64,000 nucleotides of DNA from a bacterium (GCA_021157605.1 JAGGWG010000020.1:1110-65109); one strand, 5' to 3'; counted from the first letter of the stretch, positions 317 to 36,480 are shown. Translations and numbers: made by a program. The notes: a model not told the origin generated them from the letters alone.

Positions 317-2398
317 ATGACCAAACCAAAAAACGAGCAAAGCCTTGAACAAGATACTGAAACCCAAATCCCTGTTATGCCTGAAGAACAAACAGCCCCA
401 ACTCCTCCTCCAACTGAACCAAGCAGTGAAGGGATAGAAGGAGAAGCTGAAACAACAAAACAGGAAAAAGAAGGAGAAGAAATAACAAAAACAGAAACAG
501 CCACAGAGATAAATAAAACTGAAGAAGAAACACAAAAAGAATTGCCAACTCTTGAGGAAGAAAAGCTGTCTGCTAAAGTAGAGGTTAAACCCGGAGCTGA
601 ACTGCCGCCATTAAAAACAGGAAAATCATATTATTATAAAGACCAATCAGGCAACCCAAGAATAATCCATATTGCTGCCAGAGATGGTGATAAACTAACA
701 GTTAGGTTTGAAAAACTCACACCTACAGATAAAGGAAATTGGCAGCTTGCTCCTGACCCAGAAGACAATCAAGAATATCAGATAGACCATGAGGATCTTG
801 CCCCAAGATTAAGAGCAAGAATCAGCCAAGCCAAGCTAGATCCAGAAACACTAGAAAGAGAGTTTGAACAAAAAGAAAAGGAATACAATATAGACAGCAA
901 AAGAAAATCTCAGCCAAGAAGTAGTTTTTCCGTCTCTCCAATCCAAACTCTTTCTGCAGCTCAACAAAAAGGAGAACAAAGAAAGCAAGAGCCAAAACCC
1001 AGGAAACAAACAAAAGAAACAAAAAAGAAAGCAGAAAAAATTTACCAAAGAACTAGTACAGGCGAAAAAACTCAAGAGTCTACACGTGAAAAACAGAGCG
1101 AATTTCCAGCAACAGAAACAAGAGAAATTGAGTTAGCTGAATCTGACCCTCTCTTAAAATGGGCACAAGAAAAATTAGGTTCCAAAGATCTCAAAGTAGA
1201 ACTGATGCCAGCCAAAGAAAAAAAAGAAAGAATAGTATTAATCTCTGGAGGCATATATAAAGACAAACACAGCGACACTTACTATATTGTACAAACTGTC
1301 TACCCTTTTCCCTTTTCAACTTCAGAGTGTATATACGACAACGAGGAAAAGAAATGGAAAATAAGAAAATCACAAATACCAGCAGGTGATTTTCTAAAAT
1401 TAATAAGAAGCGGTGATATCGAAATAATTAAACCTGACAAAGGCGAATCACCAGCTCAAAAAGTTCCAAAAAAATTAAGAGAAAATCGATATTTTGCTAA
1501 TCATTATCTTTTAGCAATTGCCCAAAGAGCAGCCAGTAAAGAGTTTAAAGGAAGCAGAAACGAAGGCGAAAAGAGAGCAAAAGAACGCCGTCAAAAAATT
1601 GTCGCTTTGAAAAATATGCTAATAAATGGTATGCGGCAAGGATTTATATGGGAAAAGATGCAAACTGGAGAAAAGTTTATTTTAGAAAAATTAACTCCGA
1701 CAAGAGTAAAGTTAAGAAATGCTGAAACAGGAGAAGAGCTTTTTCTCTCTAATCCCACATTCTTCCTTATGAATTATGACCCAGTAGAAAGAAGGCAAGA
1801 AAAGAAAACTCAAGAAACCGCACCAGAAAAAAAACAAACTGAAGAAAAAATAGAGAAACAACCGCAAGAACAGCCAGAAGAAATAGAAAACCAACCCTCA
1901 GAAGAACAACCTCAAGAACAAACAGAAGAAACAGCACAAGAACAAGCCGAAACCAAACCTTCTGACAACACTCCTGAAACATTCCAGATTACAAAACAAC
2001 TACCAACAAAGCCTTATTTTAGAGAACCTCCCTTTGAATCTAATCCTGAAGAGCCATCTTCTAACCCATACACAAATATCTTTCTGGAAAACGCTCAAAA
2101 TTATATAGGAGAACAAATTCTTCCTGAACAAGCCAGAACTCTAAAAATAGGAGAGATTATCTTTAGGGGTGAGGTTAGAGATAATACTATAAGCGGCCGT
2201 TATGCTAAAATTTCAGGCATTACAGATGAAGGAATAAGATACCGACTAATAAATTCAGACAATAATTTTGGTCCTAAAGAGCCAAAAAAACTAAGCAGGA
2301 AAAAAGAAAGAGAAATTGCTTTTTCTGAAATTGCTTCTTCTGAAGAAGAGGCAGAAAACCAGAATAAATATCTCCTTTACAGGGTAAACTTGGGATAA
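317..2398 (+). CDS. Large hypothetical protein (693 aa) with Glu/Lys/Thr/Gln-rich low-complexity N- and C-terminal regions and an internal duplicated module (EKLTPT motif twice)
   Basis: Long ORF with ATG at 317. N-terminus is P/T/E-rich (PTPPPTEPSSEG); the central segments KSYYYKDQSGNPRIIHIAARDGDKLTVRFEKLTPTDKG and GEKFILEKLTPTRVKLRNAETGEELFL repeat the exact hexapeptide EKLTPT. No family recognised by eye. Confidence 0.7.
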   Translation: MTKPKNEQSLEQDTETQIPVMPEEQTAPTPPPTEPSSEGIEGEAETTKQEKEGEEITKTETATEINKTEEETQKELPTLEEEKLSAKVEVKPGAELPPLKTGKSYYYKDQSGNPRIIHIAARDGDKLTVRFEKLTPTDKGNWQLAPDPEDNQEYQIDHEDLAPRLRARISQAKLDPETLEREFEQKEKEYNIDSKRKSQPRSSFSVSPIQTLSAAQQKGEQRKQEPKPRKQTKETKKKAEKIYQRTSTGEKTQESTREKQSEFPATETREIELAESDPLLKWAQEKLGSKDLKVELMPAKEKKERIVLISGGIYKDKHSDTYYIVQTVYPFPFSTSECIYDNEEKKWKIRKSQIPAGDFLKLIRSGDIEIIKPDKGESPAQKVPKKLRENRYFANHYLLAIAQRAASKEFKGSRNEGEKRAKERRQKIVALKNMLINGMRQGFIWEKMQTGEKFILEKLTPTRVKLRNAETGEELFLSNPTFFLMNYDPVERRQEKKTQETAPEKKQTEEKIEKQPQEQPEEIENQPSEEQPQEQTEETAQEQAETKPSDNTPETFQITKQLPTKPYFREPPFESNPEEPSSNPYTNIFLENAQNYIGEQILPEQARTLKIGEIIFRGEVRDNTISGRYAKISGITDEGIRYRLINSDNNFGPKEPKKLSRKKEREIAFSEIASSEEEAENQNKYLLYRVNLG

Positions 2399-2477: not shown

Positions 2478-3461
2478 ATGTTAGTAAAGCCTAAAAAAGA
2501 GCTGGACAAACTTTTTCAGATTCTGCCGCAACGCCCCAAAGAGCAAAGAGAAAAAGATGTTCTCTTTGCCCGTTTTGGTATTAATGGCAAAGAACAAAGC
2601 CTACAAGCAATAGGCAACCGCTACCATATTACTCGCGAAAGAGTACGGCAAATTCAGAATCAGGGGATAAAAAACCTGCACAAAGCAGCTAAAAAAATAA
2701 AAATCTACAGACAAATAGCCAAAAAAGTAGAAAAACAAGCAGGAATTCTCTCTCTTGAAACCGCTTATAAAATCTTTTTGCCCAAAAACGCTACTAAAAA
2801 AAGCAAAACATTTCTTTTTCTTTTCTTGGTAGCCAACCCCCATCTGCGTTATTTTAAAGAAACCTCTAAAAACAATCCGTTTTTTACTTTTAAAATCAGC
2901 CCTAAAAAAATTAAAAAAATCTTTCAGAGAACGCTTTCTTTATTCAAAAAAGAAAAACAAGCCTTAAAAATAAGTTTAGCAGCTAAAAAATTAAAAATAG
3001 AGACAAAGCAACTAAAGGAAGTGGCCAACATTCTTAAAGAAGTAGATATTAGAGAGGGAAAGATTGGTTTAACAAGTTTCCCAGAAATCAATCCTAAAAC
3101 AACTGAAGCTAAAATTGACTTTATTTTTAAAAAGTACCAAAAACCTCTGCATTTTAGTAAAATAGCTTATCTAATCCGCAAAGAAAAGCTTTATTCCAAA
3201 AAACCAACTGAAGCTACAGTGCATAATGAGCTCATTAGACATAGGCATAAATATACATTAATAGGCAGGGGTATATATGCTTTAAAAGAGTGGGGATATA
3301 CTGAAGGAACAGTTAAAGACATAATTGCGCAAATCATTAAAAAATCCAATCGCAAACTCAGCCGGGAAGAAGTAATTGCTGAAGTCTTAAAACAACGCCA
3401 AGTAAAAAGAAACACTATCCTTTTAAATTTAGCTGGCTTTAGAAAAGAACTCAAAGCTTAA
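2478..3461 (+). CDS. Sigma-70 region 4 (4.1+4.2 HTH) domain protein with ~240-aa Lys-rich C-terminal extension; no region 2
   Basis: REKDVLFARFGINGKEQSLQAIGNRYHITRERVRQIQNQGIKNLHK matches the sigma-70 region 4 consensus (RE.EVL..RFGL...TLEEVG..F.VTRERIRQIE..AL.KLR). It sits at the extreme N-terminus, and the remaining 240 aa are K-rich with no sigma regions 2 or 3. Confidence 0.7.
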   Translation: MLVKPKKELDKLFQILPQRPKEQREKDVLFARFGINGKEQSLQAIGNRYHITRERVRQIQNQGIKNLHKAAKKIKIYRQIAKKVEKQAGILSLETAYKIFLPKNATKKSKTFLFLFLVANPHLRYFKETSKNNPFFTFKISPKKIKKIFQRTLSLFKKEKQALKISLAAKKLKIETKQLKEVANILKEVDIREGKIGLTSFPEINPKTTEAKIDFIFKKYQKPLHFSKIAYLIRKEKLYSKKPTEATVHNELIRHRHKYTLIGRGIYALKEWGYTEGTVKDIIAQIIKKSNRKLSREEVIAEVLKQRQVKRNTILLNLAGFRKELKA

Positions 3462-3525: not shown

Positions 3526-6234
3526 ATGGATACAGCTTCAAGCTTTATTTTATTGTTAACTCTAACAGGAGTTTTTTTAGGATTATACTACTATCGCCAA
3601 AAGCAGAAACTAGCCTACACCAAAGAACAGTTAGATAAAGTGGAGTGGAGTCTTCTTTCTTTAGCAGTTCCCAAAGAAAATGAAAAAGGACCAGAAGCAG
3701 CTGAAAATATGTTTGCCGCTTTACACGGCATCTTTCAGGAAAACCTACCTGAAAATCTCCAATCCCAAATCAGCTTTGAAATAGTCTCTAAACCTCAAGC
3801 TATAAACTTCTATGTTGCTTGCCCTAAGTATTTAGTTGATTTTATTGAAAGCCAAGTTTATGCCCAATATCCCAGTGTAGAAATCAGAAAAGTAGAGGAT
3901 TACATCCGTTTTGCTCCACAAACGCACTTTGCCGTAGGGGAACTCGCTACTACCAAAGAAGATATTCTACCGATCAAAACCTTTCCCAACTTTGAAGTAG
4001 ATCCTTTGTCTTCACTAACTAGTATTCTCTCTAAAATCTCAGGAGACGAACAGATTTGGGTGCAGATTGTGGTACGACCCATAGCTGATGAATGGCAAAA
4101 AAAGAGCCTAAACTGGACCCAAAGCGTAAAGAATACAGGCCGCACTCCGGGATTAGCTTTAAGCACCAGCAGTGTTTTAAAAACATTAATCAATTTTCTT
4201 AAAGAACTGATACAAACAGCCAAAGGAGGCGAAACAGGTGGCGGTGAAGGAGGGGAAGTGCAAATTCCCGGCCCTTTGCAGGCAGCCATAGAAGGAGCAG
4301 AACAAAAAAGCACCAAACTGGGATATAAAACAAAAATTAGGTTAGTAGTTTTTGCTAATGACCCGCAGACAGCTCAGGGGAAACTGCAAAGTGCAGTTGG
4401 CTCTTTTAAGCAATTCAATACTCTTAATGCTAATGGTTTTGCCTTGGGTAAGGTAGTTATAGATGACCCACAGGCTTTAAATCAATACCAAAAAAGATAT
4501 TTTCTTAATGACGGTTTTATCCTTAATGTAGAAGAACTAGCTTCTCTCTTTCATTTACCCAATGTCTCTGTAGAAACTCCGAAAATAGCCTGGTCTGGAG
4601 CTAAAAAAGGCGAACCGCCAAAAAATTTGCCTATTAAAAAGAAAAAAATCAACAAAGACTTAACTATTTTTGCTGCTACTGATTTTAGAGGCTCAAAAAA
4701 AGAGTTTGGCATTTTAAGAGAAGACCGCAGACACCATATGTACTTTATTGGTAAAACCGGGGTCGGCAAATCAACGGTTTTACACAATATGGCTATTTCT
4801 GACATTCAAAAAGGGGAAGGGTTAGCGGTTATTGATCCCCACGGTGAATTAGTAGAATCTCTGCTAGATTTTATCCCTAAAGAAAGAATAAAAGATGTTG
4901 TTTATTTTAATCCTGCTGATCAAGACTATCCTATTGCCTTTAATCTTTTAGAAAATGTAAAACCTGAATTAAAAACCATTGTTGCTTCTGGACTAGTAGG
5001 GATATTTAAGAAAATTTGGGCTGAATCTTGGGGACCGAGATTAGAGTATATACTCAGAAACGATATTTTAGCTCTTTTAGACTATCCTGATGCCACCCTT
5101 TTGGGAGTAACCAGAATTTTAGTAGATAAAGATTTTCGCCAAGAGGTAATAAAACACATCAAAGACCCGGTAATAAAAGAATTTTGGATATCTGAGTTTG
5201 AACAATACGACCAACGTTTCCGCACTGAAGCTATTGCTCCCATACAAAATAAAGTAGGTCAATTCTTGGCTTCACCCTTAATCCGCAATATTGTGGGGCA
5301 AAAAAGATCAACTTTGGATATAGGCGAAATCATGAACTCACGAAAAATACTTTTAATAAACCTATCCAAGGGCAAAATAGGGGAAGATGCCTCTGGCCTT
5401 TTGGGGGCAATGTTAATTACTAAGATTCAGATTGCCGCTTTAGAACGGGCTTCTATTAAACCGGAAAAAAGAAAAGATTTCTATCTCTACGTAGATGAAT
5501 TCCAAAACTTTGCTACTGAGGCTTTTGCCACTATCCTTTCTGAGGCAAGAAAGTACCGCCTAAACCTCATTATGGCTAACCAGTATATTGCTCAAATGGA
5601 AGAGCAGGTAAGAGATTCTGTTTTTGGCAATGTCGGAACCTTGATATCTTTTAGAGTAGGGCCATCAGATGCTCCTTACTTAGCCAAAGAGTTTATGCCC
5701 ACTTTTGAAGAAACAGATCTTATAAATTTGGATAAATTCCATATCTACCTAAAGATGTCTATTAAAGGCATTACTTCGCCGCCTTTCTCAGCTGAAACTT
5801 TGCCTCCTTTTGACGGCAAAGAGGGACTGGCAAAAGAAGTAATTGAACACAGCCGCAAAATCTATGCCCAACCTTTAGTCAAAGTAAAAAAAGAAATAGA
5901 AGATCAAGCACAAAGCAAAATCATTGAGGCTTTTGAGGATTTGGTAAAACCCAAAAAAATAAAAGTAGGGGATAAAACCTTTCTTGTACGCAAAGGCACA
6001 ACTGGCCATTACTGGTATTTTCCTTTAAACAATTCAAAAAGGGAAAAGCCAAATAAAAAGAAAGACAACCCCACAACTCAAAAAGAATCTTCGCCAGAAC
6101 CAAAAAAGAAAAAAAGAGTTCTTAAAAAACTGATTCAAGAAGCACTAAAAGAAAAAGAAGAACCTAAAAAAGAATCAAAAGACAATCTTAATAATAGCAC
6201 ACTAAAAAAAGAAAAAGGGGAGATAGAGCTTTAA
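3526..6234 (+). CDS. Membrane-anchored P-loop NTPase, type IV secretion coupling-protein-like (VirD4/TraG/TraD family, FtsK-HerA superfamily), 902 aa
   Basis: N-terminal single TM (SSFILLLTLTGVFLGLYYY followed by RQKQK, so N-out/C-in). Walker A YFIGKTGVGKST is followed by a VIDPHGEL motif (compare the DPKGE motif of T4CPs), and the Walker B region is LYVDEFQNF. About 370 aa of unassigned domain with a Gly-rich linker (GGETGGGEGGE) separate the TM from the P-loop, and the C-terminus is a K/E-rich tail. Family assignment is by motif only. Confidence 0.55.
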   Translation: MDTASSFILLLTLTGVFLGLYYYRQKQKLAYTKEQLDKVEWSLLSLAVPKENEKGPEAAENMFAALHGIFQENLPENLQSQISFEIVSKPQAINFYVACPKYLVDFIESQVYAQYPSVEIRKVEDYIRFAPQTHFAVGELATTKEDILPIKTFPNFEVDPLSSLTSILSKISGDEQIWVQIVVRPIADEWQKKSLNWTQSVKNTGRTPGLALSTSSVLKTLINFLKELIQTAKGGETGGGEGGEVQIPGPLQAAIEGAEQKSTKLGYKTKIRLVVFANDPQTAQGKLQSAVGSFKQFNTLNANGFALGKVVIDDPQALNQYQKRYFLNDGFILNVEELASLFHLPNVSVETPKIAWSGAKKGEPPKNLPIKKKKINKDLTIFAATDFRGSKKEFGILREDRRHHMYFIGKTGVGKSTVLHNMAISDIQKGEGLAVIDPHGELVESLLDFIPKERIKDVVYFNPADQDYPIAFNLLENVKPELKTIVASGLVGIFKKIWAESWGPRLEYILRNDILALLDYPDATLLGVTRILVDKDFRQEVIKHIKDPVIKEFWISEFEQYDQRFRTEAIAPIQNKVGQFLASPLIRNIVGQKRSTLDIGEIMNSRKILLINLSKGKIGEDASGLLGAMLITKIQIAALERASIKPEKRKDFYLYVDEFQNFATEAFATILSEARKYRLNLIMANQYIAQMEEQVRDSVFGNVGTLISFRVGPSDAPYLAKEFMPTFEETDLINLDKFHIYLKMSIKGITSPPFSAETLPPFDGKEGLAKEVIEHSRKIYAQPLVKVKKEIEDQAQSKIIEAFEDLVKPKKIKVGDKTFLVRKGTTGHYWYFPLNNSKREKPNKKKDNPTTQKESSPEPKKKKRVLKKLIQEALKEKEEPKKESKDNLNNSTLKKEKGEIEL

Positions 6235-6264
6235 TTTTACTCTGAACAAAATTCAGCAGCCTCT

Positions 6265-6290
6265 TAATATTGTGCGACGCAAATAAAACT
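6265..6290. repeat. TTGTGCGAC motif copy A (near-palindromic core TGCGACGCA) at the start of the long noncoding tract
   Basis: ttgtgcgac at 6270-6278. The reverse complement of its core tcgcacaat recurs at 6890-6898 and a direct variant ttatgcgac at 6904-6912, about 610 bp away. Confidence 0.4.
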
Positions 6291-6561
6291 AAACCAAAAT
6301 CGTGGATTTGTCTAAAATACTGCAATCCCTAAATTTTAAATTTCGGCTATTAATTAAACATTAGAAAACAAAAAACTAAAAGCAAAAGAGGGAAGACTAA
6401 CACAAAAACTAAAAATTAAAGCTCAAACAAAAAATTTTTAAAAAATAATTAATTTAAAACTTCAAAAAGCCAAAAACAAACAAAGAACAAGAAAATGAAT
6501 TAAAAATTAGGTCTATACTTGCCAAACAGCCAGTCAAGACCTAGTTAGGAATATATAAAAA

Positions 6562-6603
6562 AGCCAAAAACAGGCTTATAAGGGCAGTTTTGGCTGTTTT
6601 TTA
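6562..6603 (+). terminator. Candidate intrinsic terminator (imperfect hairpin gccaaaaac...gttttggc followed by TTTTTT) about 330 bp downstream of the ATPase gene
   Basis: Stem plus U-run read from the sequence. It is preceded by a second hairpin (taggtct...agaccta at ~6507-6540), which could mark the end of a long 3'UTR or an independent small RNA. Confidence 0.35.
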
Positions 6604-6880
6604 TATTTTACCTCAAATAAGGCAAAAATAAAGCATTTATTTTTGTTTTTTAGAGCCATAAAAAACAAAGGGCATAAAAAAGGTTATAAAAACGAAAAAG
6701 AAAACAAGAGTTTAAAAATAAAACAGCAAAAAATATTTTAAGCACTAAAATCACAATAAAACAAAAAAGAGAAAGGGCATTATTATAAAAAAGTGCTAAA
6801 AGAAAAATATTTTTAAAAATAAAAACAAAAAAACTTAAAAAAGCAAAAAGAGTAGAAGGAAAGGAGGGAGGTTTGTTATT

Positions 6881-6922
6881 GGTATATCTTCGCACAATGT
6901 ATCTTATGCGACATAATATACC
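6881..6922. repeat. 42-nt element bounded by a 7-bp inverted repeat (GGTATAT...ATATACC) that encloses two TGCGA half-sites in inverted orientation (tcgcacaat / ttatgcgac)
   Basis: Read directly from the sequence. It lies just downstream of the strongest purine-rich SD-like sequence in the window (aggaaaggagggagg, 6857-6871). Confidence 0.4.
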
Positions 6923-7084
6923 TTAGGGATAAGAACTGGCAAAGGCCTAATTTCAAAAAATAAAAAAGAAAATTAAAAAACAACAAAATTGTTTAAGAAT
7001 ATTTCCAGAATATTGAACCTTTTGCTTTGATCAAAAACAACCAAAAAACAATTTTTTCTACCCCCTCTCCCCTATTCAAAAACT

Positions 7085-13163: not shown

Positions 13164-15200
13164 TTATTTAATCTTGTCTTTCTTGTTCTTTTTAGATTCA
13201 TAAAAAGGCAAAATCAAACGGCATTTAGGATAGTTGGCACAACCCAAAAAATAACCAAATCTGCTTTTTCGCAAAACAAGCTTTCCGCCGCATTCCGGAC
13301 ACTTAGGATGCTCTCGGCGGAGTTCTTTTAATCTCTTTTTTTCTTTAGCGCTTAACTCCTGCTCTAAATTGTCTTGATTATTTAAAGACTCTTTATAATT
13401 ACACTTCGGGAAATTGCGGCAACTAATGAATTTGCCAAAACGACCAAATTTAACCACTAATTCACCACCACATTTAGGACATTTTCTTTTTAAAACCTCA
13501 ACTTCAGTTTCCTTTGTCTTTTTAATCTGCGCATCCTTTTCTTTCAGCAGTTTTTCTAAAGGACCATAAAACTCTGCTACTACCTTGCTCCACTCTCTCT
13601 TGCCAAGAGCAATCTCGTCCAGCTCTTTCTCCATTTCAGCAGTAAATTGATAATCAACAAGATGAGGAAAATGTTTGAGCAAAAATTCTGTTACTTTTTC
13701 ACCCAAATCAGTAGGAAAAAGATAGCGTTTTTTCCGTTCAATATAGTGGCGCTTGTAAAGAATATCTATAATCGGCGCATAGGTAGAAGGCCGACCAATG
13801 CCTAAATCCTTGAGCTTTTTCACTAAGCTGGCTTCAGTATAGCGAGCTTTAGGTTTAGTTTGAAAAGCCAAAACCTGCAAATCCAGGGGCTTGAGTTTTT
13901 CTCCCTCTGTTAAATTAGGAATAATAGAGGTCGACATCCAATAAGGATAAATTTTTAAAAAACTTTCAAAAACCTGCTTTAGGCCTTTGGCTAAAAACAC
14001 ATAATCCTTATCTGCCTGAGCTAAAAGATAAATAGTATTTTCTTTAAACTCTGCTGGCTTCATCTGTGAAGCAACTGTCCGCCAAAAAATAAGCTCATAA
14101 AGACGCAACTGATCTTTTTCTAAAAAAGGTTTAACCTTGTCCGGAGAAAGCCCGATATCAGTCGGTCTGATAGCTTCATGTGCTTCCTGCGCATTTTTAG
14201 GAGCTTTATACTTTTTAATTGATTTAGACAAAAATTTAGAGCCAAACTTATTTTGCACAAAAGCTCTAATTTTCTCTACTGCTTCTTGAGCTAAAGTGGG
14301 AGAATCAGTACGCATATAAGTAATAAGACCAATCCTTTTTCCTGAAATCTCTACACCCTCATAAAGTTGTTGAGCTAAAAACATCGTCTTTTTGGCAGTA
14401 AAACCCAAACGTTGAAAAGCATCCTGCTGTAAAGTAGCGGTAATAAAAGGTGCTGGCGGAGAAACAAACTTGCTGCGGGAAATGATTTTTTGTACCTGAA
14501 ACTCTCTATTCTTAAGCTTTTCTTTTATCTTTTCCACTTCTTTTTTGTTCTTAAAATAAAACTTATCCAAAACTTTTTTACCTATCTGGTGCAAGCGAGC
14601 GCTAAATTGAGAACCTTTTTTAAAATCTGCCTGCAGGACAAAATAATCTTTTGGCTGAAACTCTTTAATCTCTTTTTCCCTTTCAACCAGCAAACGCAAA
14701 GCTGCAGACTGGACACGACCAGCAGACAAACCCCTAAGAATCTTGCGCCATAAAAAAGGAGAGAGCTTATAACCAAAAAGACGATCAATAATGCGGCGAG
14801 CTTTCTGCGCTCCCACTAAATCTTCTAAAATCTGGCGCGGCTTTTTTAATGACTCTTTTATTGCCCTTGGAGTAATCTCATGAAAGGTAATACGCTTAGG
14901 ATCTTTAAGTTTCAAAATTTCCTGCAAATGCCAAGCAATAGCTTCCCCTTCTCTGTCAAAATCAGTAGCCAAATAAACCTCTGCGTCCTTAACTGCTTTT
15001 CTAAGCTGACTGATAACTGCCTTTTTCTGAGGCAAAATCCTATACTGAGGAGCAAAATTCTTTTTTATCTCTACTCCAAGCTTAGAACGGGGCAAATCTC
15101 TGATATGCCCATAAGAGGAAAGGACAGAAAAATCCTTTAAAAAACGGGAGATAGTCCGGGCTTTTGCTGGAGACTCAACAATAATAACTTTTTGTTTCAT
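13164..15200 (-). CDS. topA: DNA topoisomerase I
   Basis: N-terminus MKQKVIIVESPAKARTISRFL (Toprim) and C-terminal Cys4 zinc ribbons (CPKCGGEL, CPECGGKL); 678 aa. Confidence 0.9.
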   Translation of the reverse strand: MKQKVIIVESPAKARTISRFLKDFSVLSSYGHIRDLPRSKLGVEIKKNFAPQYRILPQKKAVISQLRKAVKDAEVYLATDFDREGEAIAWHLQEILKLKDPKRITFHEITPRAIKESLKKPRQILEDLVGAQKARRIIDRLFGYKLSPFLWRKILRGLSAGRVQSAALRLLVEREKEIKEFQPKDYFVLQADFKKGSQFSARLHQIGKKVLDKFYFKNKKEVEKIKEKLKNREFQVQKIISRSKFVSPPAPFITATLQQDAFQRLGFTAKKTMFLAQQLYEGVEISGKRIGLITYMRTDSPTLAQEAVEKIRAFVQNKFGSKFLSKSIKKYKAPKNAQEAHEAIRPTDIGLSPDKVKPFLEKDQLRLYELIFWRTVASQMKPAEFKENTIYLLAQADKDYVFLAKGLKQVFESFLKIYPYWMSTSIIPNLTEGEKLKPLDLQVLAFQTKPKARYTEASLVKKLKDLGIGRPSTYAPIIDILYKRHYIERKKRYLFPTDLGEKVTEFLLKHFPHLVDYQFTAEMEKELDEIALGKREWSKVVAEFYGPLEKLLKEKDAQIKKTKETEVEVLKRKCPKCGGELVVKFGRFGKFISCRNFPKCNYKESLNNQDNLEQELSAKEKKRLKELRREHPKCPECGGKLVLRKSRFGYFLGCANYPKCRLILPFYESKKNKKDKIK

Positions 15201-16219
15201 AAAGCTTGATAAAATCCTGAGCCAAGATTTTTTATTTTACCTTTGACCTCTAACTCACTCAGTTTAGCCAAGGTTTTTGAAGCACTCAAGCCAAGATGTT
15301 TTTGAACCTCCTCTATATATCTGGGCTGAGACAAAAACAAAAGCAGAGAATCTGACTTTTTGTTCTTTGTTTTGGGCCAAAAACTAATAAACTCCTCCTC
15401 AATATCTTTAGCCTCAAAAACAGGTTTGGCACCTTGCCTCATTAAAGTAAAGCAACCCTTGCTTGTCAAGCGGAATATATTAGCCGGAACCGCCATAACC
15501 TCCCTGCCATAACGAGCCGCATAACTGGCAGTACTCAATGACCCAGATTTTTCTCCAGCCTCAACTACTACTGTAGCTAAGCTTAAACCGGCAATAATAC
15601 GATTGCGGGCTAAAAAATAGTATCTCTCTGGCTTAAATCGCGGCGGATACTCACTAATGACCGCTCCGCCGCTTCTTACTATTTTTTCCGCCAGCCCCTG
15701 GTTAAGAGAAGGATAAAGAGCTAAAAAACCAGAACCCAAAACCGCCACTGTTTTATGGTCTGACTCTAAAGCTGCTTGATGAGCAAAGCTGTCAATACCC
15801 ACAGCTAAGCCAGAAACAATCACCCAAGGACAGACAAGATTAAAAATTAAATTAAAAACAGCTTTCTTGCCGTACAAAGTCGCCCGTCTTGCTCCTACAA
15901 AAGACAAAGAACGCTGACTTAAACTTTTACTTTTGCCCCAAACAAAAAGATAAACCGGGGGATCAGCAATCTCTTTTAAAATTTGGGGGTAATTTTTTTG
16001 GTCTAGACGCAAAAGATTAAACTCTTTTGCTTCTTTAAACTCTTTTTCTAAAGCCGAGAGATTTAAACTTTCTAAACGTTTATAAAAACTGCGGCTCACA
16101 CCCTTGAGAGGTCTGGGATTTTTAAGATAGCGAGAATTCAGAGCTTGGGCAGACTTAAGAGCTAAAAAATCCTTTTGGGAAGGCAAAGCATTAGCTAAAC
16201 AAAAATCAACAAAACGCAT
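15197..16219 (-). CDS. dprA: DNA processing protein DprA (Smf)
   Basis: VSGLAVGIDSFAHQAALE Rossmann-fold motif; the conserved dprA-topA gene pair. Confidence 0.8.
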   Translation of the reverse strand: MRFVDFCLANALPSQKDFLALKSAQALNSRYLKNPRPLKGVSRSFYKRLESLNLSALEKEFKEAKEFNLLRLDQKNYPQILKEIADPPVYLFVWGKSKSLSQRSLSFVGARRATLYGKKAVFNLIFNLVCPWVIVSGLAVGIDSFAHQAALESDHKTVAVLGSGFLALYPSLNQGLAEKIVRSGGAVISEYPPRFKPERYYFLARNRIIAGLSLATVVVEAGEKSGSLSTASYAARYGREVMAVPANIFRLTSKGCFTLMRQGAKPVFEAKDIEEEFISFWPKTKNKKSDSLLLFLSQPRYIEEVQKHLGLSASKTLAKLSELEVKGKIKNLGSGFYQAL

Positions 16220-34260: not shown

Positions 34261-36480
34261 TTATTCGGAAGGTGGGTAATAAAGATATATTTTTTCTAAC
34301 AAAGGAGAAAGTCCAGGGATATCACGCCAATAAGCCTCTTTATCTCTTCCCTGAATTTCAACATTGCCTTCAATCTTTTTAGCAATAAAAGCCCCTAAAA
34401 GATTAACTGGCGACTGAACCTTTATTGTTCCTCCGATATCCCCATAGGGCAAAACAATAAATACACCGCGCGCGCAGCTTATATCAGAAGATAAATTTAA
34501 ATTTCCTCCCCAAACTAAAACGCCAAAAGTTTTTTCACAAACAGCACTCGCTAAATCAGAACTCAAAATATATTCTCTACCCGGCGAACTTCTGGAATCA
34601 AGAATATAAAGCCTGCCTGAACGCAAAGTCAAACCATCCAAACTATCAACTACCTTTATACCTGTCGGCTGCTCACTGAGAAAATATTCCAAAATTCCAC
34701 TTACCTCTTTTTGAAATCGTTGTGAAGCAGAATAACTCTCTTCCTCAAAATCATAATCACGCAAAAGAGCCAAACTGCCTTGGGGATAATGAAAACTGCT
34801 ATTAGCAGAAAGCACAACCAAATCAGCTCTCAAGGGAATATCCTGACTTTCTAAATATATATCACCTTGACCTGAAATTCCGGGAGAAACAAGAAGGTTG
34901 TATTGGGGCAAACTGTTTTCCTCCAAACGACCTTCCTGAGAAGCAAACCACTGTATTTTAGAACCAGCACAATCCACACATCCGGAACCTAAAGCACTAT
35001 CTTTAATAGAAAAATATATCTTTAAATTTAAGTTTTCAAATATGGTATCTTCTGGAAAAACAATCTCTAACTGCCCATTATTCTCATTTACACTATCAGG
35101 CACAACCTGAACTCCACCGGCAAAAGCCTCAACACTATTAAAAGTAAGCAAAGATGGGGAAAAACTTTCCACTACTTTTATGCCTCCCGTACCACTCAAA
35201 GCTTCTAATATCTGGCGGAAAATACTCTCAATGTTTTCACTTCCTTGAGGAATATAGTAGTACATTCCTCCAGTTTCAAAAGATAAGCCATTTAAAAGAT
35301 TAAATTTGACACCTGGCAAAGGCAAATCTGTCTTGACCAAAGAATATTGGATTCCTGACCTTTCCCTAACTTCAAAAACCGCACTTCTGTCTCCGCCTCT
35401 ACCATCAATGCTGCCTGGACACACAGAAGACGGACAGTTATAAATAGGATGAATAGATGTTAAAGACGAGGATTCTCTCGGAGGGCTCCCATCCGCATCT
35501 TCGCCATAACCTACATTGTATAATTTAATATTATCGCTCTTAAGCGCCTCAATTAATTCTAAGGAATTAGCTGGCGGATGATTGGTGTCACAATCATAAT
35601 GCGGATTCCGACTAGGATTCTCAAGATATCTCTTAAAATCCCAATTTTCTGTGCAGGCATACTGAGGATTGTTTTGATTTAAATAACAAGCGCTTTCATT
35701 CCCCGGACTAGGATTAGCAATATAAAATATATTTTCTTTACCCTGTCTGCCATCTGTAAAATTTAAAATTACTTTTTTGGCTGAATTATTTTTTACCTTG
35801 TTATTAAACAACCTTAATCCTTCTGAAAGTCCCCACCCCATTGCTGTCTGGTGGCATTTGCGATCAGCAATACGGTCTTCGGTAATTTTCTCAACTTGCT
35901 GACGTAAACTACTAACTTGAGAAGTAAAATTAATTTCTTCTACCCAATTAGGGTTATTATAGGTCTCTTTCCATTCACCGTTATAATAACCAATCATTGT
36001 GTCATAACGCAGTAAAGCCACCCTTATCTTTGTTGAAGAAGTTCTTCTTAAATTAATTTGCTCTAAACTATCCAAAAAAGTTAATAAACCTTCCTGTGCC
36101 GCTTCCATTTTACTCCGACAACTCTCGTTTAATTCCCTTCCATCTTCACATTTATTGGTCATAGACCAACTACTATCTACCAAAAGAAGTAAATAAGTCT
36201 CCTGGGCTTCTTTTTTTAATGGTTCTATTTCTAAATCAATCTGAATATTAGCTCTATTTCTTACTTCATTAGTTGTGGAGGAAGAAAGGAGACGGTTTTG
36301 CCCTCGATAAACCTCGTAAACACTCTTAGCAAAAACAGGGAGCTCACCCTCTTCTATTCCTTCTTCTGAAAAAAGAAAAAGATGCGCTGCTGGCGGTGGA
36401 ACCATTCCTAAAACTGTATTAGAGGACAACATCAAAAATAAAGCTACTGCTAAAACAAACAATTTTTTAAAACTATGCAT
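34261..36480 (-). CDS. Secreted von Willebrand factor A (MIDAS) domain protein, 739 aa, at the head of the pilus operon (candidate pilus-associated adhesin)
   Basis: Signal peptide MHSFKKLFVLAVALFLMLSSNTVLG; LLLVDSSWSM contains the DxSxS MIDAS motif. The large C-terminal region is rich in short repeated beta-like segments and carries many Cys. Confidence 0.65.
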   Translation of the reverse strand: MHSFKKLFVLAVALFLMLSSNTVLGMVPPPAAHLFLFSEEGIEEGELPVFAKSVYEVYRGQNRLLSSSTTNEVRNRANIQIDLEIEPLKKEAQETYLLLLVDSSWSMTNKCEDGRELNESCRSKMEAAQEGLLTFLDSLEQINLRRTSSTKIRVALLRYDTMIGYYNGEWKETYNNPNWVEEINFTSQVSSLRQQVEKITEDRIADRKCHQTAMGWGLSEGLRLFNNKVKNNSAKKVILNFTDGRQGKENIFYIANPSPGNESACYLNQNNPQYACTENWDFKRYLENPSRNPHYDCDTNHPPANSLELIEALKSDNIKLYNVGYGEDADGSPPRESSSLTSIHPIYNCPSSVCPGSIDGRGGDRSAVFEVRERSGIQYSLVKTDLPLPGVKFNLLNGLSFETGGMYYYIPQGSENIESIFRQILEALSGTGGIKVVESFSPSLLTFNSVEAFAGGVQVVPDSVNENNGQLEIVFPEDTIFENLNLKIYFSIKDSALGSGCVDCAGSKIQWFASQEGRLEENSLPQYNLLVSPGISGQGDIYLESQDIPLRADLVVLSANSSFHYPQGSLALLRDYDFEEESYSASQRFQKEVSGILEYFLSEQPTGIKVVDSLDGLTLRSGRLYILDSRSSPGREYILSSDLASAVCEKTFGVLVWGGNLNLSSDISCARGVFIVLPYGDIGGTIKVQSPVNLLGAFIAKKIEGNVEIQGRDKEAYWRDIPGLSPLLEKIYLYYPPSE

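Follow-up and report, generated by a model that had tools for sequence, protein, structure and literature searches.

A Patescibacteria-wide family of coupling protein-like ATPases, represented by a gene near a dif-like site, with a putative role in substrate translocation

INTRODUCTION

Patescibacteria account for a considerable part of bacterial diversity, and other cells have to supply them with nucleotides, lipids and amino acids. In S. epibionticum, the one species tested, T4SS genes are essential, and the cluster that encodes them lacks a recognizable coupling protein (PMC10633639). We examined a gene for a coupling protein-like ATPase in a 64,000-nucleotide stretch of bacterial DNA (GCA_021157605.1 JAGGWG010000020.1:1110-65109; hereafter 'the window', with positions counted from its first letter). 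An earlier annotation made without database searches (the sequence-only reading) had described the gene product as a VirD4/TraD-like coupling ATPase with an atypical architecture and no partner T4SS genes.

RESULTS AND DISCUSSION

An intact gene whose product carries one membrane anchor

The gene and the parts of its product are as follows.

3526..6234, + strand: ATPase gene (ORF with ATG start), 902 aa, DUF8128 plus T4CP-type, 'B-type' paralog
3529..3591, + strand: single N-terminal TM helix, residues ~2-22, N-out/C-in (Kyte-Doolittle)
3646..4638, + strand: DUF8128 N-terminal domain, residues ~41-371, VirB4-NTD-like fold (local HMM, domain model)
4138..4269, + strand: insertion inside the N-domain, residues 205-248, with an amphipathic helix and a Gly-rich disordered loop (model, sequence)
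4657..5814, + strand: T4CP-type nucleotide-binding domain, residues 378-763 (local HMM, Foldseek)
4750..4776, + strand: Walker A GKTGVGKST, residues 409-417; G409, G412, G414 and K415 invariant
4963-5325, + strand: all-alpha insert in the nucleotide-binding domain, residues ~480-600 (model helices 480-590)
5494..5511, + strand: Walker B DEFQNF, D657-F662, all invariant (60-ortholog comparison)
5548..5550, + strand: Arg675, candidate arginine finger, invariant (HMMER alignment to 1gl6/1e9r)
5824..6039, + strand: small C-terminal beta domain, residues ~767-838, typical of B-type paralogs (model, HMM)
6040..6231, + strand: disordered K/E-rich tail (pLDDT, composition)

The ORF is a real, intact gene and not a chance occurrence, because its product has at least 6450 homologs (E<=1e-3) and public data contain an identical protein. 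An AF2 monomer model of the whole 902-aa protein has a mean pLDDT of 80.3. Hydropathy analysis (Kyte-Doolittle) yields one hydrophobic segment, residues 2-22, and an N-terminal TM segment was found in 56 of 60 orthologs. Across these orthologs no K or R precedes the helix, whereas the 15 residues that follow it contain a mean of 3.75, and the positive-inside rule therefore gives the N-out/C-in orientation that had been proposed earlier. This lone N-terminal helix is a membrane anchor that leaves the remainder of the protein in the cytoplasm. Near the other end, the predicted model contains beta strands at 810-833, followed by the K/E-rich tail noticed from the sequence alone (20 K and 11 E among the 67 residues of 836-902), for which pLDDT falls below 50 at 837-862 and 875-902.

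The ATPase half resembles type IV coupling proteins

Profile, sequence and structure comparisons support the placement of the ATPase half, within the FtsK-HerA superfamily, among the T4CPs (VirD4/TrwB/TraD). The Pfam profiles that score above their cutoffs are PF10412 (TrwB_AAD_bind; 36.0 bits, cutoff 20.5), PF12696 (TraG-D_C; 25.2 bits, cutoff 22) and PF02534 (T4SS-DNA_transf; 20.2 bits, cutoff 20.1). Among PDB sequences, the only meaningful matches are to TrwB (top, 9e-5) and DotL (2e-3). Foldseek aligns the ATPase half with TrwB 1e9s over ~420 columns (TMt 0.61-0.64, rmsd ~5 A), and Cagbeta and DotL are likewise among its matches.

The Walker A, VIDPHGEL (residues 435-442) and DEFQNF motifs, from which the sequence-only reading had recognized a T4CP/FtsK-HerA-type ATPase, are all present. 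Residues K415, D657, E658 and R675 are invariant across 60 orthologs with 47-83% identity. Moreover, Arg675 pairs in a HMMER alignment with the Arg of the TrwB 'GRK' sequence, which by counting along the chain index is Arg375, the arginine finger of TrwB. The arginine finger that the sequence-only reading had asked for thus has an invariant candidate, and the best profile match is to a T4CP; none of KAP, AAA+ or FtsK_SpoIIIE scores best for this protein. The T4CP identity rests on these Pfam, PDB sequence and Foldseek matches together with the invariant catalytic residues.

Searches with models of other ATPase families gave no match or only low scores. Pfam shows no match to the FtsK_SpoIIIE, alpha or gamma domains or to the VirB4 ATPase profiles AAA_10 and CagE_TrbE_VirB, and no FtsK chain appears among PDB sequences at E<=1. 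DUF87/HerA reaches 19.8 bits, under its cutoff of 23.2, and the NCBIfam model for CedD, whose cutoff is 600 bits, gives 23.8 (E 1.6e-5, P-loop region only). PADLOC returned weak matches only (mad8 E 3e-13, 48 bits; HerA 7.5e-7). The NCBIfam TraD/VirD4 models also remain far under their cutoffs (SXT_TraD 42.5 bits versus 366; TraD_Ftype 18.8 versus 521), which, like the lack of a canonical two-TM N-terminus, counts against a coupling function.

A folded N-terminal domain with structural similarity to VirB4

The sequence-only reading had assigned the ~370 residues between the TM helix and the P-loop to a region with a Gly-rich linker. The Gly-rich stretch is real, but the region is a folded, conserved domain rather than a linker. 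The local N-domain HMM matches residues 41-371 with 477 bits, the domain modelled alone reaches a pLDDT of 88.1 and a pTM of 0.84, and comparison of 60 orthologs reveals strong conservation with many invariant columns. Its assignment to PF26449 (DUF8128), on which literature searches under either name found no paper, was made via the identical public protein (P0001), which carries PF26449.1, PF10412.16 and PF12696.14. The Gly-rich sequence GGETGGGEGGE (residues 234-244) lies inside the insertion within this domain, where pLDDT is below 50 at 210-217 and 234-243; the counterpart of the insertion helix is TM-like by hydrophobicity in 11 of 60 orthologs.

A Foldseek search of the PDB with the N-domain gave 14 significant matches, all to chains of R388 T4SS/TrwK (VirB4) entries, with E values between 9e-8 and 7e-5 and a TMq of 0.39-0.48; 7o42 and 7o43, which contain TrwK only, are among them. 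These matches came without target ranges, and the pairing of NTD with NTD is backed by the colinear full-length alignment, in which TrwK/VirB4 is again the best match (E 7e-16, ~900 aligned columns, whole-chain TM-score 0.25-0.34). At the sequence level, nothing was found to connect DUF8128 with VirB4, either by a profile search of all PDB sequences or by an HMM search of plasmid VirB4, and hhalign gave a probability of 0.1%. The DUF8128-VirB4 link, as drawn from predicted models, is structural only.

Because the top full-length matches are to VirB4 and all significant N-domain matches to chains of the R388 T4SS/TrwK entries, and because the NTD plus CTD layout is that of VirB4, the protein might be a second, divergent VirB4-type assembly ATPase that energises T4SS or pilus assembly and is not a coupling protein. 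We regard this as very unlikely. Both VirB4 ATPase profiles fail to match, the whole-chain TM-score to VirB4 stays at 0.25-0.34 whereas the ATPase half reaches 0.6 with TrwB, and our HMMs skip the VirB4 of a Bacillus plasmid while matching a separate gene in the T4CP position of the same operon (see below). Furthermore, Patescibacteria possess a separate, monophyletic VirB4 nested in MPF-FATA (PMC12102498), and the S. epibionticum data suggest that VirB4 is required whereas the ATPase gene is dispensable.

An annotated family with paralogs and plasmid relatives

The N-domain score given above and the 736 bits obtained with the local CTD HMM place the gene in the Patescibacteria-wide DUF8128-T4CP family (PF26449 + PF10412), which was already annotated and of which it is an ordinary representative. 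It belongs to the B-type paralogs on the basis of its high NTD score, a match of 66 bits to the Ctail HMM, which recognizes B-type but not A-type paralogs, and an HTH gene 65 bp upstream. The architecture that appeared atypical from the single sequence is standard in a family of thousands and occurs also in a Bacillus conjugation operon. In close relatives, a second paralog is located 0.5-9 kb upstream of the ATPase gene, a place that here would fall past the 5' end of the window. The observed A/B pair agrees with a published survey in which T4CP homologues were present in 2918 of 3035 Patescibacteria genomes at about two per genome (Quinonero-Coronel et al. 2025, PMC12102498). In that survey, VirB4 was encoded in 2417 of the 3035 genomes, usually far from T4CP homologues, only 148 of 5713 of which were near virB4 (PMC12102498).

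The Bacillus operon resides on B. licheniformis plasmid NZ_CP035190, whose gene 1 is matched by both the N-domain HMM (4.8e-24) and the ATPase HMM (5e-52). It is followed by genes for a Replic_Relax protein, 'conjugal transfer' proteins and VirB4 (AAA_10, E 1.9e-116), so the DUF8128-T4CP architecture occupies the T4CP position of a conjugation operon. Neither the CTD HMM nor the N-domain HMM matches the bona fide VirB4 of this plasmid. The B. licheniformis DUF8128 protein, as annotated, shows no TM segment. Bacillus plasmids with DUF8128 are in this respect not of the pLS20 type, as pLS20 itself has a canonical T4CP with two TM segments. Two adjacent genes encode the N-domain and the ATPase domain in Parcubacteria and in haloarchaeal plasmids (e.g. 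pSTJ001).

More generally, the nearest plasmid relatives of the ATPase domain, in a collection whose entries do not include R388 (BR000038), come from Bacillus, Streptomyces, Staphylococcus, haloarchaea and Sulfolobus, and most of the plasmids concerned are typed non-mobilizable. These host groups are also hosts of MPF-FATA (PMC12102498).

Genes surrounding the ATPase gene

Two genes precede the ATPase gene on the same strand.

317..2398, + strand: 693-aa K/E-rich protein, module membership uncertain
2478..3461, + strand: 327-aa Sigma70_r4 + HARE-HTH DNA-binding protein, conserved upstream partner gene (Pfam)

The DNA-binding HTH neighbour mentioned in the sequence-only reading is real and is a recurrent companion: it lies immediately upstream on the same strand in 50 of 80 loci, and the pairing is recovered also when distant HTH homologs are used as the starting point. 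Its family comprises at least 4727 proteins. Sigma70_r4 is matched at E 5e-12, while HARE-HTH remains under threshold (23.6 bits versus a cutoff of 25.9). An apparent HTH-ATPase fusion in one locus (L018, a 1340-aa ORF) is an artefact in which a run of N representing a scaffold gap joins two genes. The 693-aa protein has no Pfam, NCBIfam or PADLOC match and is homologous only to two ORFs of the closest relative (L001).

Genes for DNA uptake and processing are found at greater distances. A type IV pilus cluster (pilins, PilD, PilC, PilT, PilB, PilO, PilN) at ~24.6-36.5 kb corresponds to the competence pilus previously placed about 20 kb away. DprA is encoded at 15197-16219, with recR-topA-dprA 6-10 kb from the ATPase gene; in Saccharibacteria, dprA-topA is upstream of the ATPase gene.

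The scan covered ORFs of at least 110 aa over 317-59575, with three ORFs at 59.6-64 kb lying beyond this region, and none of the scanned ORFs matched a VirB4, VirB6 or relaxase family. A 674-aa ORF at 41321-43345 was considered as a VirB6 candidate and rejected, as it has a single mid-protein TM segment and no family match. The earlier statement that partner T4SS genes are missing accordingly holds within the scanned part of the window but not for the phylum, given the frequency of VirB4 noted above. No defence genes adjoin the ATPase gene, whose neighbours are housekeeping genes. The 850-bp gap yielded no ncRNA at Rfam gathering scores, only sub-threshold microRNA-like hairpins at E up to 1, and promoter and terminator scans showed no enrichment over shuffles.

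A dif-like site adjoins the module

6889..6912, + strand: dif-like Xer site at the replication terminus, TTCGCACAATGTATCTTATGCGAC (sequence match; unique in the window)

This 24-bp palindrome begins 655 bp past the ATPase stop codon, and its core is identical to E. coli dif at 16 of 18 positions. At this position the genes change orientation and the GC skew shows a step. Among 93 loci, 46 carry one such site and none carries two, even when up to 6 mismatches are allowed. In most of the 46, the ATPase gene is followed by the site at a distance of 70-1500 bp; the left neighbour of the site is always the HTH/ATPase module, whereas the right neighbours vary by lineage. The adjacency is seen in several classes but in none of the Parcubacteria, Dojkabacteria or WWE3 loci, and it could be inherited synteny.

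In one arrangement that we consider improbable, a single DNA-handling module linked to the terminus would comprise the HTH protein, the DUF8128-T4CP ATPase and the palindrome. Loading of the ATPase would take place at dif or close to it, and a relaxosome would be replaced by Xer or the HTH protein. The ATPase would move chromosomal DNA, either in relaxase-independent export or exchange of the chromosome between cells, or as a second route, besides FtsK, by which the terminus is resolved or cleared. The dif-like site would then be a cis-acting element comparable to oriT or clt beside a coupling-protein gene.

Mobile elements can also reside at such sites, as the gonococcal T4SS island integrates at dif (IMEX-like). 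The ATPase gene might be a relic of an element integrated at dif, or an anti-phage component (HerA/mad8-like), with no conserved cellular role. The directly adjoining site, the weak PADLOC matches to mad8 and HerA and the mostly non-mobilizable typing of relatives' plasmids are in keeping with this explanation, yet we judge it highly improbable. No locus has the second dif-like site of an IMEX relic, and the defence reading was likewise rejected, since PADLOC matches are weak and defence neighbours absent. Gene order follows taxonomy, the catalytic and N-domain residues are invariant, and the evidence for purifying selection is already strong. The S. epibionticum counterpart described below is flagged 'core family' and 'Patescibacteria enriched', and the family is near-universal in the phylum at about two copies per genome (PMC12102498).

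Evidence from S. epibionticum

By annotation, length and gene order, the ortholog of the ATPase gene is taken to be SEML1_0293 of S. epibionticum; that the orthology was assigned on these grounds is counted against the coupling explanation. In published Tn-seq data, SEML1_0293 is non-essential while its HTH neighbour SEML1_0294 is essential, and the HTH protein is therefore not merely an adaptor for the ATPase. Normalised reads for SEML1_0293 drop ~4-fold from T0 to T2, whereas flanking non-essential genes remain flat. The putative A-type paralog, SEML1_0142, is essential. S. epibionticum also has a XerC-like recombinase and a canonical FtsK (PF01580 + gamma + 4TM) that is essential; the presence of the latter rules out the DUF8128-T4CP family as an FtsK replacement.

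These data bear on a further possibility, namely that the A and B paralogs constitute their own membrane motor, an autonomous Ced-/FtsK-like DNA translocase that needs no T4SS. Such a motor would either cooperate with DprA and the type IV pilus in DNA import or exchange, or have an auxiliary part in terminus processing at dif. Its architecture and paralog pair parallel CedB/CedD of Sulfolobales (PMC11868833), to which the weak CedD match may be added. The dif-like site just downstream, with the HTH/ATPase module always on its left, and the dprA-topA linkage also point this way. In addition, SEML1_0293 resembles comEC and dprA in being non-essential in co-culture (PMC10633639), and its ~4-fold read drop is compatible with such a function. 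However, the ATPase cannot be acting as FtsK in S. epibionticum, its domain fits T4CP profiles and not those of HerA, CedB or FtsK_SpoIIIE, the dif adjacency is missing from three groups and could be inherited synteny, and SEML1_0142, unlike the competence genes, is essential. We hold an autonomous translocase to be a possible but rather unlikely explanation.

A putative role in T4SS coupling

The most likely putative role is coupling or translocation of a substrate, probably DNA, at the membrane. For the complete explanation, in which this occurs in the service of a T4SS, we consider the chances to be about even. The protein would form a ring ATPase at the membrane, perhaps jointly with the A-type paralog. 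Its VirB4-like N-domain might dock the ATPase to membrane partners, much as the R388 VirB4 NTD engages VirB3/VirB8, and ATP hydrolysis would serve to recruit the substrate (most probably DNA or nucleoprotein) or to push it into a channel. This channel would most likely be the MPF-FATA-derived T4SS which the majority of Patescibacteria encode elsewhere and whose own gene cluster has no coupling protein.

The connection to conjugation machinery is made because of the match in the B. licheniformis operon, the MPF-FATA host groups, the coupling-free T4SS cluster and the near-universal T4CP homologues, and that to DNA because of the conserved HTH neighbour and the nearby dprA-topA or recR-topA-dprA genes. 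Evidence counted against coupling also includes the absence of T4SS and relaxase genes from the window as scanned and the small number of T4CP homologues near virB4. In addition, since SEML1_0293 is non-essential and the T4SS essential, the ATPase, if it serves that system, must be dispensable for its essential role.

For the substrate receptor that is missing, this family is the obvious candidate, and its ligand would reveal what the patescibacterial T4SS moves. Experiments in S. epibionticum, which is transformable, are sharpened by the VirB4-like N-domain and the T4CP position in a Gram-positive operon, by an essential multi-winged-helix gene as the conserved upstream partner, and by the dif-like site that adjoins the module at the terminus in several classes.

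Comparison with known systems

The closest counterparts are other patescibacterial T4CP homologues, including SEML1_0293, with which the protein shares domain content, the ~900 aa class, an HTH gene upstream and dprA plus topA nearby. They are likewise chromosomal and far from virB4, and close homologs share the NCBI product name. Nothing substantive sets the gene apart from the rest of its family; in this lineage the A-type paralog is absent from the window, and inserted genes for K/E- or Pro-rich proteins lie upstream. The Bacillus and haloarchaeal DUF8128-ATPase genes differ in being plasmid-borne, and the conjugation context in Bacillus is missing from the CPR genes.

With TrwB (R388), VirD4, TraD, Cagbeta and DotL the protein has in common a P-loop domain with an all-alpha insert, the Walker A and B motifs, the Arg and N-terminal anchoring. 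Canonical T4CPs, however, possess two TM segments and a periplasmic loop, whereas here one TM segment is followed by an extra ~330-residue VirB4-like domain that precedes the ATPase; structure-based identity is ~14%, and relaxase/Mpf linkage is lacking in the scanned window. VirB4/TrwK (R388) shares the two-domain layout but differs in relative domain orientation.

FtsK/SpoIIIE, of the same superfamily, is a membrane-anchored ring DNA pump whose partners are a winged-helix DNA reader and, at dif, Xer. The ATPase gene here lies between a multi-winged-helix gene and a dif-like site, although the protein has no FtsK_SpoIIIE, alpha or gamma match. Finally, the Ced system is required for DNA import in Sulfolobales (PMC11868833). 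The ATPase domains of CedB and CedD are of HerA/VirB4 rather than T4CP type, and each N-domain corresponds to only part of the VirB4 NTD, yet these proteins share with the present family a TM segment, a VirB4-NTD-like domain and an FtsK/HerA-superfamily ATPase, and they form a paralog pair that works beside type IV pili (PMC11868833).

A membrane-anchored ATPase with a T4CP-type active site

The window comes from the core chromosome of a Patescibacteria (CPR) genome and carries secF, secD, rluA, dus, cysS, recR, topA, dprA, mfd, ribosomal protein genes, rodA, ileS, tRNAs, holB, argS, tyrS, a class A PBP gene, radA, recJ and part of the dcw cluster. Genes for type IV pili cluster at about 24.6-36.5 kb, and at the edge of that cluster lies a gene (34261-36480, - strand) for a 739-aa VWA-domain protein, possibly a pilus-associated adhesin. 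A 674-aa ORF (41321-43345, + strand) with a single mid-protein transmembrane (TM) helix has no match in Pfam or PADLOC. Our analyses show that the gene of interest here encodes a membrane-anchored cytoplasmic ATPase with an intact active site of the type IV coupling protein (T4CP) kind, a predicted VirB4-like N-terminal domain and a conserved helix-turn-helix (HTH) neighbour. All motifs named in a sequence-only reading of this gene were located:

3526-6234, + strand: ATPase ORF, 902 codons, ATG start
residues 234-244: Gly-rich GGETGGGEGGE
residues 409-417: Walker A, GKTGVGKST
residues 435-442: VIDPHGEL
residues 657-662: Walker B, DEFQNF

The ORF has not arisen by chance: the ATPase has at least 6450 matches among database proteins (E<=1e-3), and one public protein is identical to it. 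Its named relatives come from Berkelbacteria and 'Patescibacteria group' MAGs (50-83% identity). The protein encoded upstream is identical to NCBI 'hypothetical protein J7K05_02535 [bacterium]'.

The only hydrophobic segment comprises residues 2-22, and an N-terminal TM is kept in 56 of 60 orthologs; K/R residues are absent ahead of it and average 3.75 over the 15 positions that follow. By the positive-inside rule, this distribution indicates an N-out/C-in topology, in agreement with the single N-out TM proposed earlier. The K/E-rich C-terminus likewise stands, with 20 K and 11 E among the final 67 residues.

The proposed T4CP-type assignment is borne out by profile searches. In Pfam, TrwB_AAD_bind covers residues 401-716 (36 bits versus a cutoff of 20.5), TraG-D_C and T4SS-DNA_transf likewise exceed their cutoffs, DUF87/HerA scores below cutoff, and FtsK_SpoIIIE, AAA_10 and KAP are unmatched. 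The best family is thus TrwB_AAD_bind rather than a non-translocase such as KAP or AAA+. NCBIfam TraD models score far under their thresholds, and a PDB sequence search returned only TrwB (E 9e-5) and DotL (2e-3). The Walker A glycines, K415, D657-F662 and R675/K676 are invariant in the 60-ortholog alignment (47-83% identity). Arg675, the candidate arginine finger, pairs in the PDB sequence alignment with the arginine of the TrwB 'GRK' motif (Arg375 by counting). We regard a relic or defence reading of the gene as very unlikely.

A folded domain in place of a linker

The approximately 370 residues between the TM and the P-loop had been taken for a linker, a view that our results overturn. PF26449 (DUF8128) precedes the ATPase domain in the public copy and in all 120 homologs listed, so that the supposed linker corresponds to a curated Pfam domain that has no assigned function. 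Dozens of further positions within residues 48-370 are invariant in the same 60 orthologs, and the region is folded in an AlphaFold2 model of the full-length protein (mean pLDDT 80.3), which contains the following elements:

residues 3-38: helix
residues 41-345: alpha/beta N-domain, with a disordered insertion at 210-247
residues 379-760: P-loop domain, with a helical insert at about 480-600
residues 810-833: small beta domain, followed by a disordered tail

The best Foldseek PDB matches of the full model are to full-length TrwK/VirB4 of R388 (E 7e-16), aligned over about 900 columns with a TM-score of only 0.25-0.34. TrwB ranks second (TMt 0.61-0.64 across some 420 columns), ahead of HerA, Cagbeta and DotL. 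Modelled alone, the N-domain (residues 39-375; pLDDT 88.1, pTM 0.84) yields just 14 significant PDB matches (E 9e-8 to 6.7e-5), all of them chains of R388 T4SS/TrwK entries, including the TrwK-only 7o42 and 7o43; the remaining matches all have E >1e-3. The Foldseek output gives no target ranges for these matches, and the N-domain carries no sequence-level signal of a relation to VirB4. We read the model as a fold like that of the VirB4 N-terminal domain. The structural matches of the N-domain to TrwK and of the P-loop domain to TrwB would thus make the protein a VirB4-like N-domain joined to a T4CP-like ATPase domain.

The insertion at residues 205-248 (window 4138-4269) consists of an amphipathic helix followed by a Gly-rich loop. 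The helix is hydrophobic enough for a TM-like score in 11/60 orthologs, which suggests contact with the membrane surface rather than a second membrane pass.

The same architecture in other genomes

A tblastn plasmid search with the ATPase domain found 686 records (about 27-39% identity), mostly from Bacillus, Streptomyces, Staphylococcus, haloarchaea and Sulfolobus. These are host groups of MPF-FATA T4SSs, within which patescibacterial VirB4 is nested (PMC12102498). The first gene of B. licheniformis plasmid NZ_CP035190 encodes an 885-aa 'DUF87 domain-containing protein' that is matched by both our N-domain HMM (E 4.8e-24) and our ATPase-domain HMM (E 5e-52). Downstream lie genes for a Replic_Relax protein, 'conjugal transfer' proteins and a true VirB4 (AAA_10, E 1.9e-116) that neither HMM matches; a VirB4-type role for the ATPase itself seems quite unlikely.

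The two domains also occur as separate genes. Haloarchaeal plasmids (e.g. pSTJ001) carry a 387-aa DUF8128 gene immediately 5ʹ of a 1030-aa T4CP-like gene, and two Parcubacteria loci have adjacent genes of 435 + 528 aa (L091, 8015-10929) and 393 + 586 aa (L092, 8113-11060), the ATPase ending in a treble-clef zinc finger (zf_Tbcl_2). This split form explains the many DUF8128-only proteins of about 420 aa among the 2427 clusters found with the N-domain (E<=1e-3). The Parcubacteria genes are preceded on the same strand by secA..secD-secF-HTH, so that the SecDF linkage recurs in another orientation. The closest plasmid relative of the ATPase (38.7% identity, E 3e-92) is a 395-aa ORF that comprises the ATPase domain alone (L087, 7983-9170, Sulfitobacter mediterraneus plasmid NZ_CP081110); it adjoins transposases in this alphaproteobacterium and may have been acquired by transfer from a CPR-like source.

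These sequences show that neither this gene nor the CPR is alone in having the DUF8128 + T4CP architecture. The earlier interpretation therefore holds for the T4CP family but not for an atypical, singular architecture: the gene is an addition to a known, already annotated family.

A second paralog and a conserved HTH partner

Berkelbacteria-like loci encode, in this order, a small protein, an A-type paralog of the ATPase and a protein of 171-190 aa; the B-type gene (the type found in the window) and convergent secF-secD follow. The A-type protein (about 830 aa) has the TM, DUF8128 and ATPase with intact Walker motifs and is without the C-terminal beta domain. Locations in relatives (L001 being the closest) are:

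A-type paralog: L002 6851-9346; L004 6862-9363; L005 6934-9423; L006 4963-7452; L001 1-1144
conserved 170-190-aa protein between A and B: L002 9486-10001; L004 9465-9992; L005 9424-9996; L011 9395-9907

The latter protein has no Pfam match and occupies the position held elsewhere by the HTH gene. The closest relative (83% identity) and L006 have the A-type gene 2.5-9 kb upstream of the B-type gene and a Sigma70_r4/HARE-HTH gene directly 5ʹ of B-type, as in the window; by analogy, the window organism's A-type gene would lie beyond the window's 5ʹ end. Within the window, the K/E-rich 693-aa protein encoded at 317-2398 (+ strand) has no family match; its sole relatives are two neighbouring ORFs (312 + 531 aa) of the closest relative, whose two ATPase paralogs are separated by inserted genes for further Pro/Glu-rich repetitive proteins.

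The reported HTH neighbour, encoded at 2478-3461 on the + strand, is a conserved partner. Of the 80 loci whose upstream sequence was long enough, 50 have a full-length homolog of the 327-aa HTH protein encoded immediately before the ATPase gene on the same strand, usually across a gap of 10-130 bp, and three distant HTH homologs used as starting points again had DUF8128 + ATPase directly downstream. The HTH family is phylum-wide, and its members, of which there are at least 4727, carry the NCBI name 'sigma factor-like helix-turn-helix DNA-binding protein'. What looked like an HTH-ATPase fusion in L018 is an artefact of a scaffold gap that joins two genes.

A dif-like site downstream

The ATPase and convergent secF stop codons are separated by 850 bp (6235-7084, 26% G+C), which contain:

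6889-6912, + strand: dif-like 24-bp palindromic box, TTCGCACAATGTATCTTATGCGAC

In distant relatives the box of about 24 nt (consensus GTCGCACAATGTATATTTTGCGAC, 6-bp inverted arms) is all that is conserved in the gap, the flanks having diverged. It is unique in the window (chance expectation 0.05). Allowing <=6 mismatches, 46 of 93 loci have exactly one copy and none has two, usually 70-1500 bp 3ʹ of the B-type gene; the box is absent from the Parcubacteria, Dojkabacteria and WWE3 loci examined. Gene orientation flips at every box, from the + strand on the left (e.g. 5/5, 6/6) to the - strand on the right (e.g. 0/7, 0/10 on +), and GC skew usually falls across it (in the window, from about 0 to -0.2 at 7 kb). 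To the left the same module is found across lineages, and to the right the genes are lineage-dependent (secF-secD in the window, ftsQ and the dcw cluster in Saccharibacteria). The core is identical to E. coli dif, confirmed in MG1655, at 16/18 positions. The box is probably a Xer site at the replication terminus; our literature search found no paper describing dif in these bacteria. The same gap holds a long hairpin (6548-6609, AAAAAAGCCAAAAACAGGCTTATAAGGGCAGTTTTGGCTGTTTTTT) that may be a bidirectional terminator, with only sub-threshold microRNA-like Rfam matches on both strands.

Possible functions and comparison with known systems

VirD4-type T4CP homologues number 5713, in 2918/3035 Patescibacteria genomes, of which only 148 lie near virB4; VirB4 occurs in 2417/3035 genomes and relaxases are almost absent (Quinonero-Coronel et al., PMC12102498). 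The A-type and B-type paralogs of one genome would account for about two homologues per genome. Consistent with the earlier remark on missing partner T4SS genes, VirB4, VirB6 and relaxase families had no match among the window ORFs scanned (317-59575).

In S. epibionticum, the T4SS cluster has no recognizable coupling or relaxase proteins (Wang et al., PMC10633639). The Tn-seq calls in Tables S1 and S2 of that study cover a one-strand cluster that includes:

SEML1_0298: dprA, non-essential
SEML1_0296: topA, essential
SEML1_0294: 'RpoS', Sigma70_r4 + HARE-HTH, 349 aa, essential
SEML1_0293: ATPase counterpart, non-essential (dispensable in co-culture)

Annotation, length and gene order are our only grounds for matching the window gene to SEML1_0293. 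The normalised reads of SEML1_0293 went from 5817 to 2940 to 1372, with flanking non-essential genes flat (PMC10633639). The essential SEML1_0142 (1019 aa, P-loop at 381-800; PMC10633639) is a second family-like protein, probably the A-type paralog. One XerC-like recombinase, SEML1_0117, is present, as is a canonical essential FtsK, SEML1_0096 (PMC10633639), and we reject the ATPase as the cell's FtsK.

The reading that we favour, with perhaps an even chance, is that the ATPase couples substrate to the patescibacterial T4SS. Monomers would assemble into a ring, the VirB4-like N-domain would dock it to membrane partners, and ATP would drive delivery of DNA or nucleoprotein to the channel. This coupling role is favoured by the same architecture at the T4CP position of a Gram-positive conjugation operon, by the CPR T4SS cluster without its own T4CP, and by the near universality of both ATPase family and T4SS in the phylum. 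An autonomous motor, serving Ced-like DNA import/exchange or an auxiliary terminus role, is the main alternative, possible but doubtful, and draws on the CedB/CedD parallel (PMC11868833), linkage to dif and dprA-topA, and dispensability in co-culture. Exaptation of a T4CP homologue was also kept possible by Quinonero-Coronel et al. (PMC12102498). The VirB4-like N-domain, HTH partner and dif adjacency, which we did not find in the literature searched, are leads rather than demonstrations.

That the HTH gene is essential while the ATPase gene is not implies that the HTH protein has a role beyond serving the ATPase. The tus and rtp genes also adjoin Ter sites, and a multi-winged-helix HTH gene beside a probable terminus recalls their placement.
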